Shown one piece after another: positions 2,840 to 12,164 of a DNA stretch of 24,000 nt. The translations under genes and the position numbers were made by a program. Source of the DNA: Candidatus Scotarchaeum otlingeri (GTDB lineage Archaea > Thermoproteota > Nitrososphaeria > Geothermarchaeales > JDFR-13); assembly GCA_002011075.2 (NCBI GenBank), contig MTMA02000006.1, forward strand, positions 332,860 to 356,859. Direction: 5' to 3'. The notes beneath the pieces were generated by a model. That model saw nothing but the letters and a program-made list of their open reading frames with translations. It did not search any database and was not told where the DNA came from. How positions within the stretch are numbered: the stretch's first letter is position 1; every line of letters starts with the position of its first letter.

Positions 2840-4357
2840 ATGATGAATAGAATAATCCTCAAAAATTGTAATATATATACAATGAGTAGCGAGAGACCTA
2901 ATGCAAAGGTATTATGTATAGAGAATGGAGTAATATCATATGTAGGAGAACAGATCCCTTCTAAATTCTCAGGTAAAATCATAGATTTAGGAGGTAGAAC
3001 AGTTCTTCCAGGGTTTATAGATTCACATATGCATTTATCATCTTATGCTCTGATGCAGGTTACTACCGATCTCTCAGGAACCAAATCTATTGAGGAGTTA
3101 AAATACAGACTAAAAGCGGCGAAAAATCAAGATGTACCCTGGATATATGGTAGAGGTTGGGATCATGAAGAATTTAGTGATAAAAGACTGCCTTCTAGAA
3201 AGGATTTAGATGAAGTATCTGTTGATATGCCAATCTTAATAGTACGTAAATGTGGACATGTTGGCATAGTTAATTCGTTAGGTATAAGGAAAATAATCGA
3301 TTTAGGATTGGCAAGAAATAGTAGTAATCAAGCAGAATTAAGTCAGGGGGTTCTATACGAAGAAACCTTATATAGAGTCATAAAACATGTGCATTCTCAA
3401 TTATTGTCACCATCAACATTAAGGAGCGCCATCGAAAATATAGTCAAGAAAGGGATAACCTCTATTCATTGGATGAGTGCCGATACATTTTCGATAAAAA
3501 AATTAGTAGAGGCCTTTAAAGGAAATCTCCCTATTAGGATATTTATCTACCTTAGTTCTGAGCATCTCAGTAAATTTCGTGATATAAAAGCTTCTTATGA
3601 AAATGGAAAGATAAAGATCATTGGAATCAAACTATTTATGGATGGATCCTTTGGTGCAAGAACAGCTGCGCTTAGATCAGGCTATGATGATGAGCCTCAT
3701 AATATGGGCATTCTAAATATGAATGCCGCTGAGCTGATATCTTCAATATTGAGGTGCATCAAATTAGGAGCAAAAATAGCCATTCATATTATTGGAGATA
3801 GAGCATTGGAAATAATGTTAGATGCATTAGAAAGGCTCGATAGATCTATTATAAAGCATATTAGAATAGAGCATTTATCTCTATTACCAGATGACTTATT
3901 TACAAAGATAAAACGCTATTTACCATTAAAGGTTTCTATTCAGCCTAGATTTGTAACATCTGATTTTTGGATAAGAGATCGTCTAGGTAAGAGAGCCAAA
4001 TATACATATAGATTTAACTCTATGAAAAAAATAGGCTTTATAATGGGAATAGGTTCAGATGCACCGGTTGAAGAAATAGATCCTTGGATACATATAATAT
4101 CCGCCATAAACGGCCCATACGTCAATCCTCTTGAAGCAATCGACATTAAGACGGCCATAGAGTTATACACCATTGGAAGTTCAAATCTAATAAACTCTAT
4201 AGGGCTTGGAACCTTAAGAAAGGGATACTATGCGGATTTGATAGTCTTAGATAAAGATCCATTTAGATGCACGCTAGAAGAACTTAGAGATATAAAAGTA
4301 TTAATGACTATGGTTGATGGAGTAATATTATTTGATAGGATTAATGTAAAGAAGTAA
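2840..4357 (+). CDS. Metal-dependent amidohydrolase, YtcJ-like (Amidohydro_3 family)
   Basis: Family motifs are present: VLPGFIDSHMHL, KLFMDGSFGARTAAL, AIHIIGDRA, RIEHLS, GSDAPVEEIDP. The length of 505 aa is typical of the family. Confidence 0.85.
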   Translation: MMNRIILKNCNIYTMSSERPNAKVLCIENGVISYVGEQIPSKFSGKIIDLGGRTVLPGFIDSHMHLSSYALMQVTTDLSGTKSIEELKYRLKAAKNQDVPWIYGRGWDHEEFSDKRLPSRKDLDEVSVDMPILIVRKCGHVGIVNSLGIRKIIDLGLARNSSNQAELSQGVLYEETLYRVIKHVHSQLLSPSTLRSAIENIVKKGITSIHWMSADTFSIKKLVEAFKGNLPIRIFIYLSSEHLSKFRDIKASYENGKIKIIGIKLFMDGSFGARTAALRSGYDDEPHNMGILNMNAAELISSILRCIKLGAKIAIHIIGDRALEIMLDALERLDRSIIKHIRIEHLSLLPDDLFTKIKRYLPLKVSIQPRFVTSDFWIRDRLGKRAKYTYRFNSMKKIGFIMGIGSDAPVEEIDPWIHIISAINGPYVNPLEAIDIKTAIELYTIGSSNLINSIGLGTLRKGYYADLIVLDKDPFRCTLEELRDIKVLMTMVDGVILFDRINVKK

Positions 4358-5434
4358 CTTCGATAAACGATTAATTATTCTCTTTCTCTCGAGATTCGCC
4401 TTTGAGGCTAGTTCATCAAAATAGCTAATCACTTCATCATATACATCTTTATCTATAGGAAATGGTACGCCATCCTTACCTCCTACTGCAAAAGTATACC
4501 TAACAGGATCCCTCTTTGAAGGCTCTACACCATATATTACCTCAGATATTAGGGATAAAGCCCTTATCGTTGACGGACCTATTCCCCGTATACTAATTAA
4601 TTCTTCTAGATTAGAAGGCTGCGTCTCATATGCTTTTTTAATTGCTTTCCAATTAATTCTTGTTGGCATAGCCAAGGTTTTAATCCGGCTACCTGTTTTC
4701 TTCTCAATCCAAAAATTAAGGCCAATATGAGAGTAATACTTCATATTGTCTAGATCCTTTTTGAATCGATCCTTCTCTTTAACAATATCTATTATTACTC
4801 TATTTGTCTCAGAGCTTTCTCTCGATGTCAAATCTATTACCTCCCTATGAGCTAGATCTCCGATCATTCCTGAATGTGGTTCTATAACATAGCTACTTAA
4901 ACTGGATGACGCCCAGTGATACCTCCGTGCATATTTTATGGTCGGGTTCATTCCCTGCTGTATTATGCTCCAATTATTATGTTCATCAAAGAAGATTGTG
5001 TGGTGATAAAGATAATACCCATCTAATAATAGGGTATTATCTACCTTTGCCGCTATCCTACTTGTATAAATAATTTTTTCTTTATCTATAGCATCAATCC
5101 GATGCGAAATCCCCTCGATCTCATCTATCGTGTTACGTGCATGAATTCCCTTTCCCCCTGCTATAAAAATTCCTATATCCTCGTTTCTGCATGCATCCTT
5201 TAAGGCGGATGTAACTACAGTCGTTAGCCCCGATGAATGCCAATCAAACCCTAAAACACACCCTAATGCTTGAAACCATATGGGATCAGCTAATCTATTA
5301 AGTAACTCCTTGACCCCAAAATCCTCTATTATTATATATAAAATTTTCTCTCCAAGGTCCACCATCCTATTATATAACCATTTAGGTACATATCCTGTAT
5401 GCAAAGGCAAATATGCATAACCTGTTCGTCTCAT
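4328..5434 (-). CDS. DUF763 family protein with C-terminal helix-hairpin-helix
   Basis: MRRTGYAYLPLHTGYVPKWLYNRMVDLG matches the conserved DUF763 N-terminus. An HhH-like segment, LISIRGIGPSTIRALSLISEVIYG, lies near the C-terminus. The longest ORF extends to 5557 but would overlap the divergent pilin start, so I prefer the ATG at 5434. Confidence 0.65.
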   Translation of the reverse strand: MRRTGYAYLPLHTGYVPKWLYNRMVDLGEKILYIIIEDFGVKELLNRLADPIWFQALGCVLGFDWHSSGLTTVVTSALKDACRNEDIGIFIAGGKGIHARNTIDEIEGISHRIDAIDKEKIIYTSRIAAKVDNTLLLDGYYLYHHTIFFDEHNNWSIIQQGMNPTIKYARRYHWASSSLSSYVIEPHSGMIGDLAHREVIDLTSRESSETNRVIIDIVKEKDRFKKDLDNMKYYSHIGLNFWIEKKTGSRIKTLAMPTRINWKAIKKAYETQPSNLEELISIRGIGPSTIRALSLISEVIYGVEPSKRDPVRYTFAVGGKDGVPFPIDKDVYDEVISYFDELASKANLERKRIINRLSKLLLYINPIK

Positions 5435-5518
5435 CACTCCATATAGAGTAAAAACCTTGGCATTATAAGTATTAAATAATTCCTCTGGCGGTCGCTTCTC
5501 TATTCTTTTAAACAGCTG

Positions 5519-5527
5519 AAATATAAA
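5519..5527 (+). promoter_or_regulatory. Putative TATA box of the pilus operon (leaderless or short-leader transcript)
   Basis: AAATATAAA is centred about 25 nt upstream of the ATG at 5548. This matches crenarchaeal TATA-to-TSS spacing. Confidence 0.3.
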
Positions 5528-5547
5528 GGAGGGTTGAGGCGTAAAAT

Positions 5548-5985
5548 ATGAGTCCATATATCAATAGATATTTTAATAAAAGAAAAGGCGTATCAGTATT
5601 TTTGCAAATCGTTATTCTGGTGATAATCGTTTTAGCCTTAGGTGTCATGGTATATAGCGGAGCCTCCGGGCTGATGAATAACTGGTTTACCAATAGACAA
5701 ATCAATGTATTAGGAGCGTTCACGATCGGCTCTAACATAATAGTAAATGCCAAAAACGCAGGTAACATACCGGTTACAATAGAATCAATTGAAATACTTG
5801 ATATGAATGGAGTAATTATAGCAAACACCTCGGCAGACTTGCCACTAACATTACAACCCGGTGATGCAGCTAAAATTACCCTAACCATAGACCCTGCAGC
5901 CACAATATCCCAAGGCGACATAGTAGACATCTATATCTACATTGAGAATGGAGAAATATTCAAAGTAAGGCTCTCTCTTCAATGA
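5548..5985 (+). CDS. Archaeal type IV pilin-like protein (class III signal peptide)
   Basis: The N-terminus MSPYINRYFNKRKG|VSVFLQIVILVIIVLALGVMVY has a basic region, Lys-Gly at -2/-1, and then a hydrophobic helix. This is the PibD/FlaK cleavage-site pattern. A small beta-rich C-terminal domain follows. Confidence 0.75.
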   Translation: MSPYINRYFNKRKGVSVFLQIVILVIIVLALGVMVYSGASGLMNNWFTNRQINVLGAFTIGSNIIVNAKNAGNIPVTIESIEILDMNGVIIANTSADLPLTLQPGDAAKITLTIDPAATISQGDIVDIYIYIENGEIFKVRLSLQ

Positions 5986-6001: not shown

Positions 6002-6436
6002 GTGAAAGCTGTCACCCCACTAATAGCCACATCAATACTAATACTCATAGTTATATCTCTAATCTCACTATTAATGTACCAAACCCCATCATTAGTAAAT
6101 ACCGAAGTTAGCAGCTTATCAAGTCAATACCTAGAGTTATCCACAAACAACGGAGTACATATAGAATTCATAGCACATGCGATCAATGGATCCTCTCACT
6201 ATATATATTTATATAATTACGGCTGGACACCAGCGATTATAAGCAACATATATATAAACGATTCACTTGAGATAAATGATTTCACCATCTTTGTTGATAC
6301 CATAGAAAATGAGGCCTCTACATTAGAACCAAAGAAAATTTCAATTATAAAAATCAATTATACTGGAAGCATGAACTCTATAACCCTAATTCTAAACCAT
6401 ATAATTAAACTCAGGTGGATTATTAATGAATCGTAG
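6002..6436 (+). CDS. Archaeal type IV pilin-like protein (class III signal peptide)
   Basis: GTG start. The N-terminus MKA|VTPLIATSILILIVISLISLL resembles the conserved archaeal pilin/archaellin N-terminal motif (xSPVIATVLLIAI-like). A beta-rich domain follows (YIYLYNYGWTPAIISNIYIND). Confidence 0.7.
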   Translation: MKAVTPLIATSILILIVISLISLLMYQTPSLVNTEVSSLSSQYLELSTNNGVHIEFIAHAINGSSHYIYLYNYGWTPAIISNIYINDSLEINDFTIFVDTIENEASTLEPKKISIIKINYTGSMNSITLILNHIIKLRWIINES

Positions 6437-8543
6437 AAAAGGAGTGTCAAATCTCGTCGCATTTGTATTGATACTAATAATTGCTATCAGCATAATGAGT
6501 AGCTATATATACCTAGACTTTGCTAGAAACAGATATTTCTCCTCTATAGAAAAGTCTGTTGAACTTCTAGGCTCACGAAGTAAAGAAAGTATCGTTCTTA
6601 TAATCGATGAAAATAACCCACAAAGAATTATTATAGAGAGTCGCTGGACAAATAGCTCTACAATAAAATATTTGATCACCCTAGATAGTAATAATAAAAT
6701 AGAAACGATTCCCCTAAATATGGCGTTACCTCCACTAGAAAAGATTAGTGTTAACCTAAAAGAACCTTATAATACTTATAAATCTATATATATCGTAACT
6801 TCTTTGGGAAACGTATATAATCCATCTTTAAATTCATCTGCAATGAGAACTAATAATCTCGTATCAGACAAAAAAATTTTCTCATTAAACTATCTAACTG
6901 GCATCGATGCTAATGAAATTAAGATACTGGGTCATAACACTGCCGCCCTTAAGATAACTGACCTCTCAGGAGCTAAACAATTATTTATTTTCAACATGAT
7001 AGATGGCCAAATAATAAGTATAAATCATTTTTCATCCAGTAACGGCCGTATCCGAATTTATGCCAATTCTATATACTTCGAGAATGAAATAAATTATGTA
7101 GACATTAACGGAGAATTATTTATGCTCGATAATCCTATATCTGCTGTTTGCTATATTGGGAAAAAATATATTATCGTTAGGGGACTTGACTATGCATATA
7201 TAATCCATGACAACACAACAATCAGAAAAATACAGTTTTTGTATCGAAATATCGAGTGTATTTTTAGAGATAAAGATATAATATTATATTCCCGTGGAAC
7301 TGCAAAGTTATCGAGCACGCGACTATATGCATATCATATATATAGGATTTATGACGGTCGTGTTTTATGGAATAAAGTGATAATATACCCATTTGAATCA
7401 TGGGACATCTCATATATCTCATCATTCACCCCTGGATCCAAAATAATAATATCTAATAGATGGACAACACCACTTTCATATCCTATTTTCGGCTCTGCAA
7501 TTATAGATGACTCTGAAGCCGCAGTAAAATCATATTTGGGGATTCCATCTATCATGCCTAATACAGCATGGGGAAATATAAGCGACGATGATCTTACCGA
7601 TTCACTATATTATGGTAATATTACATTTAACGTAAATAATGGTGAATACCCTATCGTAATCAAGCCCTATGGTGGAGGAATAATTCATAATACTACAGAT
7701 GCATTAGAAAAATATCATCTTTACATCGAAATAGATATCGGATACAAGTTTCCTGAACCAATTTATATAATGTTTTATGCAAAGCTCTTCTACGAATATT
7801 ATGCTCTTCGAATAATTAGATTCTATAACTTAACAAACAATTCTTACATGCTAAATGCATCGATCATCAAGTTTTCTAACGGATTCGAGGAAAAAATTAG
7901 CCAAGATATATATCTTACTAGTAAGATTTCATTAACACGCATATGGATAGATGGCGAAGTAATTAATAATAATCTTATTATTAGGGCGATATTGAAAGCC
8001 ACAGACACAAATATCTATAGCTCAATAAATGAACATACCGGCTTTATAACATTATCAGTAGGAGAATTGCCTATCGGAAGAGGTGAGGGTATAAAAGTAG
8101 ATTCGCTATATAAAGGAAAACTTAAAGTCAAGAAGTTCATCAGTTACTGGAATACGGATATTATTTTTATTCCTATCAGCGAAGAAGAAGTAATATTAGT
8201 CAATAATATATTTATATCTTTCAAAGAGCCCTTCCGGGGATTAATCGGCTATGATGAAAGAGCAGTATACCTATTATCTTTCTCTGTGGCTACTATTTTC
8301 GATCCTATTAAGCTAGACCTAAACAGGTGGCTAACTGGTGAAAATCCCATACTTAAAGACGAAAAATCTATTATTTTACGGTTAGGACTATACAGGAGTG
8401 ACGGATTCAATTTGTATTTTGAGAAGAACTTATTCGATAATAACACACTTCTTTTAGGACTACCCACATATGCAGCAATTGACAATAACATTTTCTGGCT
8501 CATTTATCGACTTCCTAATCAGATATATATCGATAATGGGTGA
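6426..8543 (+). CDS. Large (705 aa) pilin-like / pilus-associated secreted protein with class III signal peptide
   Basis: The N-terminus MNRRKG|VSNLVAFVLILIIAISIM shares the RKGVS cleavage context with the first pilin. The rest is Asn/Tyr/Ile-rich with many N-x-S/T sequons, and I recognise no known domain. It overlaps the preceding gene by 11 nt and the next by 4 nt. Confidence 0.65.
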   Translation: MNRRKGVSNLVAFVLILIIAISIMSSYIYLDFARNRYFSSIEKSVELLGSRSKESIVLIIDENNPQRIIIESRWTNSSTIKYLITLDSNNKIETIPLNMALPPLEKISVNLKEPYNTYKSIYIVTSLGNVYNPSLNSSAMRTNNLVSDKKIFSLNYLTGIDANEIKILGHNTAALKITDLSGAKQLFIFNMIDGQIISINHFSSSNGRIRIYANSIYFENEINYVDINGELFMLDNPISAVCYIGKKYIIVRGLDYAYIIHDNTTIRKIQFLYRNIECIFRDKDIILYSRGTAKLSSTRLYAYHIYRIYDGRVLWNKVIIYPFESWDISYISSFTPGSKIIISNRWTTPLSYPIFGSAIIDDSEAAVKSYLGIPSIMPNTAWGNISDDDLTDSLYYGNITFNVNNGEYPIVIKPYGGGIIHNTTDALEKYHLYIEIDIGYKFPEPIYIMFYAKLFYEYYALRIIRFYNLTNNSYMLNASIIKFSNGFEEKISQDIYLTSKISLTRIWIDGEVINNNLIIRAILKATDTNIYSSINEHTGFITLSVGELPIGRGEGIKVDSLYKGKLKVKKFISYWNTDIIFIPISEEEVILVNNIFISFKEPFRGLIGYDERAVYLLSFSVATIFDPIKLDLNRWLTGENPILKDEKSIILRLGLYRSDGFNLYFEKNLFDNNTLLLGLPTYAAIDNNIFWLIYRLPNQIYIDNG

Positions 8544-10012
8544 GTACGGTGAATACCGATAACCTCGAATTGATTGAGAGGTACGAAGTACATAGTAAGT
8601 GGCAAGTTAATAATGGGAATCAATATAATTTAAGAGCAAACATCGAGATATACGATTCATACGATTCCATGTATTATATCGTAAATGAACCCTTTTCATA
8701 TGATATCCAAAATAGAATAAGAGAAATTATATCGAAACTAGAGCGTTATATAGAATATAATAATAGTTATATAGAAGATCCTGTGCGATACCTGCTAAAT
8801 CTCTATAACAAGATGTATAAAGGAAGTGATAATTATGAAGAACTTAGAGAAGCCTTTAAATATTATGTAATTAAAGAAAGGGTGAGCTATGGGATTCTTT
8901 CATTTCCTCTTTCAGATATAAATGTAGAAGATATCTCATGCATAGGACCCGAAAATCGTATTAAGGTATGGCATAAGAAATACAATTACAAAGGATGGTT
9001 ATCGACGAATATCATGTTTAATCAGGAGGAGCTAGATAGAACAATAAGAAAATTGGCATATAGAACTGGAAAGTCAATCAGCATATTAAGGCCTACATTG
9101 GAATCCGTTCTTCCAGAAGGTTTCCGTTTAACAGCTACTTGGAGGAAAGAAATCTCGCCCTTGGGAAGCAGTTTTACTATTAGAAAATTTCGGTCCGAGC
9201 CATATACAATGACAGAATTAATCAACTATGGTACTATCGACACATTTACGGCTGCTTATCTTTGGATGATGACAGAACTCAAAAAATTTATCGTTATCAT
9301 AGGACCTTCAAGTACTGGGAAAACAACTCTTGTAAATGCATTAGCATACCTTGTACCACCAAACTCTAAAATAGTAACCATAGAAGACATTAGAGAACTA
9401 AATTTATCTTATCACAATAATTGGAAGCCTCTAACTACCCGTCCATTACATAACGACGATACTATAAATATATTCGACTTGGTAAAGCTTTCTCTTCGGG
9501 AAAGGGCGGATTTACTCATATTAGGCGAGTCAAGAGGTGAAGAAGCCCGTCTGATATGCCAAGCAGCGGCTACTGGGCACGGATGTCTAACAACATTTCA
9601 CGCTGAAACTATTAGTGGATTATTGGCTAGACTAAGAAGTTACCCCATTAACGTAGATGATAGTATGTTACTCCTAATCGATACGGTTGTAATTATGCAA
9701 AGAGAAAACAATAGAACAAGAAGGATTTATAAAGTGGCTGAGAATCACAATCTGAAGTGGGAAACGATCTCAAAATATATCGGCAATGGAAAATGGATAC
9801 ATTATTCTGATAATATTAAAAACATCTGTGGGTCGAATGATAATATAAATAATATTCACATGCTAATGCACGAGTTAGATAAAAGAAGGAAATTTCTACA
9901 TTATCTCGTGAAACTAAAGATACTTTCACCACTGGAATTTTCTTATAGAATCAAAATGTTCTACGCCGGAGTGTATAAATATGAAAATGGTAGATGGATC
10001 CTTAAAGCATAA
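8540..10012 (+). CDS. Type IV pilus assembly ATPase (FlaI/VirB11/PilB superfamily)
   Basis: Walker A GPSSTGKTTLVNAL, Walker B/Asp-box region ADLLILGESRGEEA, His box LTTFHAE, and the FlaI-like N-terminal motif YYIVNEP. The GTG start overlaps the upstream TGA stop (GTGA). Confidence 0.85.
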   Translation: MSTVNTDNLELIERYEVHSKWQVNNGNQYNLRANIEIYDSYDSMYYIVNEPFSYDIQNRIREIISKLERYIEYNNSYIEDPVRYLLNLYNKMYKGSDNYEELREAFKYYVIKERVSYGILSFPLSDINVEDISCIGPENRIKVWHKKYNYKGWLSTNIMFNQEELDRTIRKLAYRTGKSISILRPTLESVLPEGFRLTATWRKEISPLGSSFTIRKFRSEPYTMTELINYGTIDTFTAAYLWMMTELKKFIVIIGPSSTGKTTLVNALAYLVPPNSKIVTIEDIRELNLSYHNNWKPLTTRPLHNDDTINIFDLVKLSLRERADLLILGESRGEEARLICQAAATGHGCLTTFHAETISGLLARLRSYPINVDDSMLLLIDTVVIMQRENNRTRRIYKVAENHNLKWETISKYIGNGKWIHYSDNIKNICGSNDNINNIHMLMHELDKRRKFLHYLVKLKILSPLEFSYRIKMFYAGVYKYENGRWILKA

Positions 10013-11690
10013 ACTCTATACATATGGCAATAGGATAACCACCCGTTTCATAAATAAACTTGATGAACTGTATATTAAGCATAGTCAAGGCCCCATAATG
10101 TTCTTAATTAAAGTTCTAGTAAAATTTATCTCAATGGATCCTACTAAAGCGAGACTAAGATATAAGAAGACTCGACTCGCATTTATAATGCTATTGTTCT
10201 ATTTAATAATACCTCCTACGTTTATCTCTTTTTTGTATTTTATTCTAGAAGGCCTGAAATCCCTATACTTCGCAATATCCATAGTTCTGCTGAGCTGCCT
10301 TCTACCGATCCTATTCATAAATCTATTTATAGGAATCAAGATATACGAGAGTAAAAGAGGAATAGAGCGTGAAATATTATTCTTCAATCTCATAGTGTGT
10401 ATATATTCAGGGCTAAATAGGCTAGAAAGTGGTTTTAAGGTTATAGCAAACGAATTGAATGATATTCTAAAATTTATATCAAAAGAGATAAAGGGATGGT
10501 TAATCTATTCTCGTATACATAATGAGGATATTGATTATTCAGCTTCTAAGATGATAAAAACTGCTCCATCCGAAAAATTCTCCGCACTAATCAATCAATA
10601 TATCGAGTTCAAATATACCGGCGGCGATGTTAATAGGCTCTTCAATGATAAATTATACCAAATCATAAACGAAATTAAAGCCACATGGAGATATAGGCTA
10701 AATAACATATCTTCTTACATTGAAATACTTCTTATAATATATGGCTTAGTGCCGATATTATTCTCAATGTTATCTTTTATATTTGATATTAGTGTTTTGC
10801 ATAAATTTGTTTATATAATGGCGATTCTATTCATCTCTATCGGTCTAATAATCTATATTATATTGGACAACTACCAGTTTTTTATACCCGACCTCTCTTT
10901 ATATGTAACTCCTAAACATGTTACTTATATTCTAATTATGGAGCTAGTATTGGTTATATTCCTAATATTCACTACCAAGATTAACATATATGCTTTCTAT
11001 TCTGCGGTTCCACTAACTGTTTTTATTCCTCTCTCGATAATCGGTTACGTCACAAAAAAGGGGGTTAGTGAGGAAGAATCGGATCTATCAATATTTATGG
11101 ACTCAGCAGAGGAATGGCTTAGGCATGGATATACAATAGAAGATATAATTAATCGAGTTGATGTGACTAATTATAAATATCGGTTTAGAACAATAATACT
11201 GAAATTAAAAGAACTTCTAAACTTAGGATTTGATCCACGCGAAGCTATAAAGCAGCTGCCGATCTTATCGGGTGTGGTATATCTCTCATTTAGAATTATA
11301 GGGGAGATTATGGAAGTGGGCGGTGGACTAAATGAAGTAACTAAGCTAAGAACGGTCCTAGATGAATATATCTTCCTGAAAAAGAAAAGTTATGAAGCAT
11401 CCATGCTTCCACTAATAGTATCCGGGTTCCTACCTATCGTTGGATTATTTGGAATATCAGTTAACAGCGGACTTATATCGATGATTGCAACAGCTTCAAT
11501 ATATACACTAGGATTAAGCCCTGTAGCACTAAGATTCATAATTGATAGCAGCATATTTCTTCTAATAATGGGTGCATTAATATCATCTATACTTGTAGCT
11601 AAAATGGTAAATGGTACCGTACGATATCCTCAATATGCATTAGTACCACTAATATCAACAGTTATTGGAACACTAATAATACCTCTGTAG
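9981..11690 (+). CDS. Type IV pilus platform membrane protein (FlaJ/TadC family)
   Basis: A 569-aa polytopic membrane protein placed immediately after the ATPase and overlapping it by 32 nt. It has two blocks of TM helices separated by soluble helical domains, as in FlaJ/TadC/UpsF-type proteins. Confidence 0.7.
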   Translation: MKMVDGSLKHKLYTYGNRITTRFINKLDELYIKHSQGPIMFLIKVLVKFISMDPTKARLRYKKTRLAFIMLLFYLIIPPTFISFLYFILEGLKSLYFAISIVLLSCLLPILFINLFIGIKIYESKRGIEREILFFNLIVCIYSGLNRLESGFKVIANELNDILKFISKEIKGWLIYSRIHNEDIDYSASKMIKTAPSEKFSALINQYIEFKYTGGDVNRLFNDKLYQIINEIKATWRYRLNNISSYIEILLIIYGLVPILFSMLSFIFDISVLHKFVYIMAILFISIGLIIYIILDNYQFFIPDLSLYVTPKHVTYILIMELVLVIFLIFTTKINIYAFYSAVPLTVFIPLSIIGYVTKKGVSEEESDLSIFMDSAEEWLRHGYTIEDIINRVDVTNYKYRFRTIILKLKELLNLGFDPREAIKQLPILSGVVYLSFRIIGEIMEVGGGLNEVTKLRTVLDEYIFLKKKSYEASMLPLIVSGFLPIVGLFGISVNSGLISMIATASIYTLGLSPVALRFIIDSSIFLLIMGALISSILVAKMVNGTVRYPQYALVPLISTVIGTLIIPL

Positions 11691-11705: not shown

Positions 11706-12164
11706 GTGAAGGGAAGTTACGTCCTATTATTATGGATAGATAAAGACAGAAAAATTAAGTTCGGAAAAAACCACAATGCATATTTCAAAGAAGGAATATA
11801 TGCATATGTAGGGTCAGCATTAAATAACTTATATAAACGTCTAAATAGACATTTTACCTATAGAAAAAAACTGAGGTGGCATATAGACTACATTATTCCA
11901 TATTCAAAAATACTGGGAGCCATAGTAATTGAATCCCCTGAAAAACTAGAGAGCATAATAGCCAATCACCTGGCCCTATACTATGAATATATACCTAAAT
12001 TCGGCGCAACAGATACCAACGATCCAAGTCACCTATTTTATATAGGTAAATCATATGATGCATTATTTGATTATATATACGAATTGAAGGACAAACATTC
12101 CATCATGAAAATTTTCTGGATCGTTAATCCAAAAAATAATCTTGGTGCGGCCGGGGGGATTTGA
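11706..12164 (+). CDS. DUF123 / GIY-YIG (Uri) superfamily endonuclease-like protein
   Basis: GIYAYVGSALNNLYKRLNRHFTYRKKLRWHIDYI matches the DUF123 signature (GxYxYVGSA...RxxRH...WHIDY). GTG start. The last ~19 nt of the ORF read through the 3' end of the opposite-strand tRNA. Confidence 0.75.
   Translation: MKGSYVLLLWIDKDRKIKFGKNHNAYFKEGIYAYVGSALNNLYKRLNRHFTYRKKLRWHIDYIIPYSKILGAIVIESPEKLESIIANHLALYYEYIPKFGATDTNDPSHLFYIGKSYDALFDYIYELKDKHSIMKIFWIVNPKNNLGAAGGI

Follow-up and report, generated by a model that had tools for sequence, protein, structure and literature searches.

A candidate modular minor pilin encoded in the type IV pilus operon of an uncultured Nitrososphaeria family

Introduction

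Archaeal type IV pilus (T4P) loci encode large signal-peptide proteins for which a role as minor pilins or adhesins has been predicted, and the clade-4 T4P systems are described as having extra adhesin or S-layer-like components in Thaumarchaea (Makarova et al., 2016, PMC4858521; Sivabalasarma and Albers, 2026, PMC13705601). The function of these archaeal proteins has been inferred from context only. Here, we describe gene X, an open reading frame (ORF) at positions 6426–8543 (+) of a 24,000-nucleotide stretch of DNA (the window; contig MTMA02000006.1, positions 332,860 to 356,859) from Candidatus Scotarchaeum otlingeri, whose genome (1.69 Mb, 6 contigs, 88% complete) represents an uncultured family of the Nitrososphaeria. 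Like the predicted archaeal proteins, the 705-residue product of gene X is large, possesses a pilin-like N-terminus and is encoded beside a pilus ATPase gene and a platform gene; it differs from them in lacking any Pfam or NCBIfam match, and its pilin homology and its conserved and variable parts are mapped in this study. X adds a new and unannotated protein to a class whose existence had been predicted, and it does not define a new kind of system. On balance, we lean toward X being a modular minor pilin that the pilus displays, probably at its tip, as an adhesin.

Among bacteria, the type IVb minor pilins CofB of enterotoxigenic Escherichia coli (ETEC) and TcpB of Vibrio cholerae consist of a pilin domain followed by beta-rich and lectin-like domains, and each operon contains one such large minor pilin, which initiates assembly and sits at the tip. 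These bacterial proteins are not homologues of X. The large tip-associated proteins PilY1 and PilC of type IVa pili contain a beta-propeller domain and serve as the analogy for archaeal adhesins in the papers cited above; however, PilY1 does not belong to the pilins and is attached to the tip through minor pilins, whereas a pilin module is built into X. No PilY1-type Pfam match was obtained for X or its 15 orthologues, and PilY1 is not among the listed fold matches. The modular pilins of Streptococcus sanguinis, namely PilB with a vWA module and PilC with immunoglobulin (Ig) and concanavalin A (ConA)-like lectin modules, share with X a class III signal, a pilin moiety and a grafted bulky module; such bacterial modular pilins have been placed at the pilus tip, the only position in the filament that they fit sterically (PMC9934059). 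X may share a lectin-type sandwich with them, but no sequence similarity links the S. sanguinis pilins to X. The modules of the S. sanguinis pilins can be recognized from sequence, and experiments have shown that these pilins bind glycans, whereas the body of X is larger, unrecognized by sequence and modelled as propeller-like.

Results

In the window, X lies between two small prepilin genes and the genes of the pilus motor. The 145-aa prepilin PilA (5548–5985, +) gives a weak UpsA match (NF046073, 42.7 bits, below the cut-off), and the 144-aa, fast-evolving prepilin PilB (6002–6436, +; these names refer to the operon described here) gives weak UpsB and BasA matches. Downstream of X are a secretion ATPase of the T2SSE/FlaI/BasE-like type (8540–10012, +; PF00437, E 1.8e-26, with the FlaI and BasE models below cut-off) and a polytopic platform protein of the TadC/FlaJ/UpsF-like type (9981–11690, +; weak UpsF match, NF046075, E 1.2e-15, below cut-off), which is syntenic in the family. 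The order of a DUF763 gene on the minus strand followed by pilA, pilB, X, the ATPase gene, the platform gene and a DUF123 gene recurs in 10 of 13 other sampled genomes of the family (these 10 being the ones in which the layout was read; several loci end at a contig end), and start and stop codons overlap within the layout from pilA to the platform gene. Each of these 10 genomes contains exactly one copy of X per operon, encoding an orthologue of 671–783 aa at the same position between the pilins and the motor genes. X is a fixed member of the pilus operon in this uncultured family. When six-frame ORFs were searched with the X profile, a match was found in 12 of the 13 other family genomes, and the matching ORF was 680–783 aa long in 11. 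The median pairwise identity within the family is 47% for DUF763, 44.5% for the ATPase, 40% for PilA and 39% for DUF123, and falls to 27% for PilB, 25% for the platform protein and 23.5% for X, whose rate of evolution matches that of PilB and the platform protein; PilA, the best conserved pilin, is likely the major subunit.

The reading frame of X opens with an ATG at 6426, and its N-terminus consists of the leader MNRRKG (6426–6443, +) followed, after the predicted class III cleavage site at G6, by VSNLVAFVLILIIAISI; the first small pilin of the operon, PilA, reads NKRKG before the corresponding site and VSVFLQIVILVIIV after it. A leader ending in (K/R)-G ahead of (V/L/I/F)-S is present in 15/15 orthologues, with G6 invariant, and the hydropathy scan of the whole protein revealed a sole hydrophobic segment, at residues 3–33. 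Judged by these sequence features, the N-terminus of X is a genuine prepilin-type signal. The start itself is preceded at a distance of 7 nt by a Shine-Dalgarno-like GGTGG (6414–6418, +), similar to the GGTGA ahead of the pilB start at 6002, and it lies 11 nt inside the 3' end of pilB, overlapping the pilB stop; at the other end, the last 4 nt of X (8540–8543) also belong to the ATPase gene, which starts with GTG. The GGTGG spacing, the overlap with pilB and the conserved leader together make 6426 a well-supported start. The ESM Atlas entry for X has the full 705-residue form. One public gene call for X gives a protein of 682 aa that starts at M24 (6495), by which the signal and half of the helix are removed; we regard this as the less likely of the two starts. 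An earlier reading of the window, made from its sequence alone (the sequence-only reading), had assigned X a prepilin signal in the same RKG/VS context as the first pilin, with the start at 6426, and our analysis bears out all three points, the shared context being read directly from both N-termini.

Behind the leader, residues 7–135 (6444–6830, +) make up a pilin module, in which a hydrophobic alpha-1 helix is followed by a predicted beta-sandwich and which ends at the motif T125-x-L-G128-N-V/I-F/Y. Profile comparison indicates that residues 1–131 of X are homologous to the operon's own pilins: hhalign of the X family gave 95.3% (E 2.2e-8) with the pilB family and 92.2% (E 5.7e-7) with the pilA family, in alignments of 121–124 columns that cover the leader, the helix and the beta domain. 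In both of our AlphaFold2 (AF2) models, the helix spans residues 5–53 and the beta-sandwich residues 56–125, with a predicted local distance difference test (pLDDT) score of 58–90, and the ESM Atlas model of residues 1–142 matches a 143-residue Nitrososphaerota protein cluster with a template modelling (TM) score of 0.83. The best PDB match by sequence profile, 8fk7, was weak (E 0.057). The module is thus modelled with the fold of an archaeal type IV pilin, a long N-terminal helix on a beta-sandwich. The architecture of X is, accordingly, that of a pilin moiety (residues 1–135) with a grafted C-terminal body of 570 aa, and the pilin fusion suggested in the sequence-only reading finds support in both the homology to PilA and PilB and the predicted fold.

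The body was more refractory to searching. Neither X (Pfam, E ≤ 0.01) nor any of its 15 orthologues (E ≤ 0.1) has a Pfam or NCBIfam match, so the earlier statement that X has no recognizable domain holds for these two collections. When 1.8 billion representative proteins were searched exhaustively with HMMER, nine relatives came to light, of which four were full length; word-indexed homologue searches, whether started from X alone or from the alignment, returned only X itself and one other protein, probably because the biased composition of X saturates the index. The single-sequence search of the PDB with X gave chance-level matches only, and the top score of the ESM Atlas feature search (0.76) was under the usable level.

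Within the body, a proximal and a distal part can be distinguished. The proximal part (residues ~150–320; 6873–7385, +) is conserved, beta-rich and blade-like and contains the motifs SS-x-(D/N)G-R-I, Y-I-G-x-x-Y and S-N-G-x-I; the distal part (residues ~321–705; 7386–8540, +) is variable and includes a possible lectin-like beta-sandwich (residues ~410–537; 7653–8036, +). Comparison of the three subgroups of the X family by hhalign gave 98.4–99.3% over about columns 2–320, that is, the first 270–320 residues, and no significant homology between the subgroups beyond approximately residue 320. Because distal homology is undetectable, the MAFFT columns past this point are unreliable, and AF2 effectively had five sequences there. 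Such a gradient from conserved to variable is typical of exposed recognition proteins.

The first AF2 model of X, built from 7 sequences, was poor (mean pLDDT 49.8), and the second, from 15 sequences, reached a mean of 57.8, the gain being confined to residues 1–320; in the second model, pLDDT was 62–92 at residues 150–320, fair at 440–520 and 680–705 and poor elsewhere. All top Foldseek matches of this model are beta-propeller proteins (E ~1e-5, but with low TM scores); the proximal body matches propeller blades at middling Z, and the matches of the lectin-like sandwich are likewise middling. We treat a body consisting of a propeller with an inserted lectin-like sandwich as a lead from modelling rather than as a result. 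No body residue is invariant among the 15 orthologues, and therefore no binding site can be named. We also considered whether X might be an S-layer protein and set this reading aside, X having no C-terminal anchor and bearing a pilin N-terminus.

The sequence-only reading had further proposed that X is heavily N-glycosylated, and this proposal was not upheld. X contains 10 N-x-S/T sequons, compared with 7.9 ± 2.5 in 2000 shuffles (p = 0.25), and enrichment beyond composition was rejected on this basis. The sequon density of X, 1.42 per 100 aa against 0.44 pooled over the other proteins of the window (approximately threefold; 0.75–2.5 per 100 aa in the orthologues), is high owing to the abundance of these three residues, Asn, Ser and Thr, in the protein. 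This density fits a surface protein and provides no evidence of heavy glycosylation.

The same pilin module is found in other Nitrososphaeria. Across 200 sampled genomes of the class, the X profile has matches in 62, nearly always to only the first ~130 residues, and the matching ORFs range from 115 to 1937 aa. Five larger relatives were scanned with Pfam: two contain Laminin_G_3, a ConA-like lectin domain, and three contain arrays of InlB B-repeats (Flg_new_2), and for three of the five (at loci L077, L025 and L013), a gene for a T4P ATPase or platform protein is located no more than a few kb away. The pattern that emerges from these sequences is that of a pilin module used across the class as a carrier for surface-binding modules. 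At L077 (1584–6716, −), in a single-contig genome of 2,833,868 bp, a 1710-aa protein has the pilin module followed by InlB B-repeat and Ig-like domains and adjoins genes for a T4P ATPase (534 aa) and a platform protein (717 aa). The host genome of X has a second type IV pilus-like locus (contig 6, 926000–940000), in which a 149-aa pilin is accompanied by class III signal proteins of 474 aa and 295 aa; the 295-aa protein bears an X-like N-terminal module (E 4e-14), and the 387-aa ATPase of this locus is 37% identical to that of the window. In another family of the class, a gene for a protein of ~400 aa (L010, 3671–4855, +; L014, 8837–10057, −) precedes an X-like gene of ~510 aa, with full ATPase and platform genes also nearby. 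These ~400-aa proteins are weakly similar (24–26% identity) to residues 101–283 of the pilus ATPase, and the gene may be a degenerate ATPase paralogue.

X could, instead of being a filament subunit, be a membrane scaffold that stays at the cell envelope, processed or not, and is held there by its N-terminal helix. Its large beta-rich body would serve as a collar, a stator or an S-layer anchor around the base of the pilus, a role comparable to that of ArlF and ArlG in the archaellum. The single copy of X between the pilins and the motor genes would suit such a role, as would the covariation of its evolutionary rate with that of the platform protein and a lectin-like module that could bind a glycosylated S-layer. 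We also know of no alignment or secretin complex in archaea, a point that counts in favour of a scaffold. However, the basic leader with its invariant glycine at −1 in 15/15 orthologues suggests that cleavage matters, the top fold and profile matches of X are filament-forming pilins and archaellins and not ArlF/G, a hypervariable distal half would be unexpected in a collar touching conserved machinery, and the relatives bear adhesin-type modules. We consider a scaffold unlikely. Of the roles offered in the sequence-only reading, a tip adhesin or minor-pilin fusion stands as the best, given the pilin homology and the operon, with an anchoring or assembly role as a rival that is still alive.

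A related arrangement is known from Sulfolobus, where bindosome substrate-binding proteins such as GlcS and AraS are also large, have prepilin-type signals and depend on a T4P-like ATPase and a platform protein; functionalized type IV filament (T4F) machineries with class III signal binding proteins have been proposed to be widespread (PMC13705601), which would make room for X among them. By analogy, a short pseudopilus could hold X near the membrane or in the S-layer, where X would serve nutrient capture by binding a substrate or by acting on glycans. The ATPase of the window matches the BasE model (E 4.5e-60) and PilB matches BasA weakly, but both scores are far below the cut-offs. X repeatedly gives weak fold matches to propeller-plus-sandwich enzymes of the GH43/GH32 type and to ConA-like folds, as a glycan-active protein might; yet no match to a substrate-binding-protein or glycoside-hydrolase family was found in 15/15 orthologues, and no acidic body residue is conserved among them. 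GlcS and AraS are ABC-transporter binding proteins encoded in transporter loci, whereas X and its orthologues have no Pfam or NCBIfam match to a solute-binding-protein domain, gene X lies within a pilus operon, and no ABC transporter was seen beside the operon in the family loci read. Nutrient capture of this type is, in our view, distinctly unlikely.

Gene X is located directly upstream of the pilus ATPase gene, as is upsX of the Sulfolobales, and this arrangement is the same throughout the family. UpsX is a protein of ~79 kDa that is predicted to be cytoplasmic (PMC3892339); like X, UpsX (NF046072, arCOG05986) is of similar length, beta-rich and devoid of known domains. The gene order differs, being X-E-F-A-B in the Sulfolobales ups operon and A-B-X-E-F here. 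The UpsX model NF046072 had no match in the host genome at E ≤ 10 and matched 0/200 sampled genomes of the class, whereas it matched 15/15 genomes of one family in a phylum-wide sample, which we take to be the Sulfolobaceae. When X was compared by hhalign with UpsX from eight genomes of that family, the results were 0.35% and 2.7%, and a hydrophobic N-terminus, which X has, was present in 0/10 UpsX proteins read. The window ATPase is 33–41% identical to the ATPase encoded behind upsX and 32–37% identical to other T4P ATPases of its own class, and is thus no closer to the former than to the latter. In support of a divergent UpsX-like factor, one can cite the position and size of X, the weak matches of PilA, PilB and the platform protein to the UpsA, UpsB and UpsF models, and the coupling of a GIY-YIG-like DUF123 gene to the 3' end of the operon across genera; set against the null result of NF046072, the hhalign values, the absence of a hydrophobic N-terminus from UpsX and the distribution of UpsX, this explanation is hardly credible, and we reject homology. 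The earlier description of the position of X as UpsX-like is accurate as to its place upstream of the ATPase gene, and only position and size, as far as the sequences indicate, are shared. The UpsF model NF046075 scored above its cut-off (512–552 bits versus 400) in two genomes of the class (G183 and G021; loci L022, L023 and L024). Given that the class sample lacks UpsX, this model is not specific to Ups systems, and we discarded it as a marker for them.

Several neighbouring genes complete the picture of the locus. The DUF123 (GIY-YIG-like) gene (11706–12164, +; PF01986) begins 16 nt past the platform stop and is the final gene of the operon in every family genome in which the 3' end was read (L072, 9495–9932; L073, 139–585; L071, 2249–2671; L069, 4370–4789; L009, 3707–4183); in three other genomes, the platform and DUF123 genes share 4 nt or are separated by a few nt. 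This close spacing suggests co-translation with the pilus machinery, and the placement recalls the nuclease and helicase genes beside the ups operon of Sulfolobales. In the loci of other families that were read, DUF123 was not seen beside the X-like genes. The DUF763 gene (4328–5557, −) is divergent from pilA in 10/10 family genomes read; its longest ORF in the window overlaps the pilA start, and therefore a later start (5434) is more likely. Further upstream is a gene for a prepilin (class III signal) peptidase (1897–2610, +; PF01478 Peptidase_A24, E 4.2e-8, 34 bits versus a cut-off of 26.5). This PibD/FlaK-type peptidase is presumed to be the enzyme that processes X. A DUF2122, RecB-family nuclease-like gene (1430–1885, +) ends 12 nt upstream of it; the sister genomes read retain the DUF2122-like gene close to the operon but have no ORF of peptidase size at that site.

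Discussion

We propose that X is a modular minor pilin, and the steps by which it might reach the pilus tip can be outlined as follows. The PibD/FlaK-type peptidase, whose gene lies 3.8 kb upstream, would cleave off the MNRRKG leader, leaving a mature protein with the hydrophobic alpha-1 helix and a small beta-sandwich, followed by a beta-rich body of ~570 residues. The adjacent ATPase and platform protein would then pull the helix of X from the membrane and insert it into the core of the pilus. The body appears too bulky to pack along the shaft, and X would therefore be a low-copy subunit; most likely, it would be the first subunit in, and being first, it would sit at the tip. There, the proximal body, up to approximately residue 320, would hold out the hypervariable and possibly lectin-like distal part, which would bind a surface or a partner cell. 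X may also help to prime pilus assembly.

Several points weigh against this proposal. The case is built on sequence and predicted structure, and the organism is uncultured. The conserved class III motif would also be compatible with a processed, membrane-proximal protein, as in the bindosome, and the data fit the tip or the base of the filament alike. The pLDDT of the AF2 model is below 50 for most of residues 322–653, in keeping with its low mean, and the internal repeats expected of propeller blades were not found by hhalign self-comparison (0.1%). The lack of any invariant residue in the body also leaves no binding site that could be named. In addition, the platform protein evolves as fast as X (25% versus 23.5% median identity), and therefore fast evolution alone is no proof of exposure.

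A bolder version of the tip-adhesin proposal can be entertained. The operon might encode an Ups-like pilus for cell-cell recognition and DNA exchange outside the Sulfolobales, in which X would combine a pilin with a PilY1-like propeller in one self-anchoring protein and its hypervariable, lectin-like distal half would read the glycosylated surface of the partner and set species specificity. Processing of the DNA, once transferred, would fall to the products of the GIY-YIG-like DUF123 gene, translationally coupled to the platform gene, and of the DUF763 gene on the opposite strand. We regard this scenario as a long shot.

Archaeal type IV pili are widespread, and their low-copy subunits are almost unstudied; to our knowledge, no archaeal pilus tip protein has been characterized. 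Gene calls of the M24 type hide proteins such as X from surveys that look for class III signals at N-termini. If X is a modular minor pilin, as we think somewhat probable, its family provides a clean candidate for what would be the first tip subunit of an archaeal pilus: each operon has one large modular pilin, its pilin module is mapped, a variable head follows a conserved stalk, and the sister proteins in relatives among the ammonia oxidizers bear recognizable lectin or Ig-like modules on the same pilin module.

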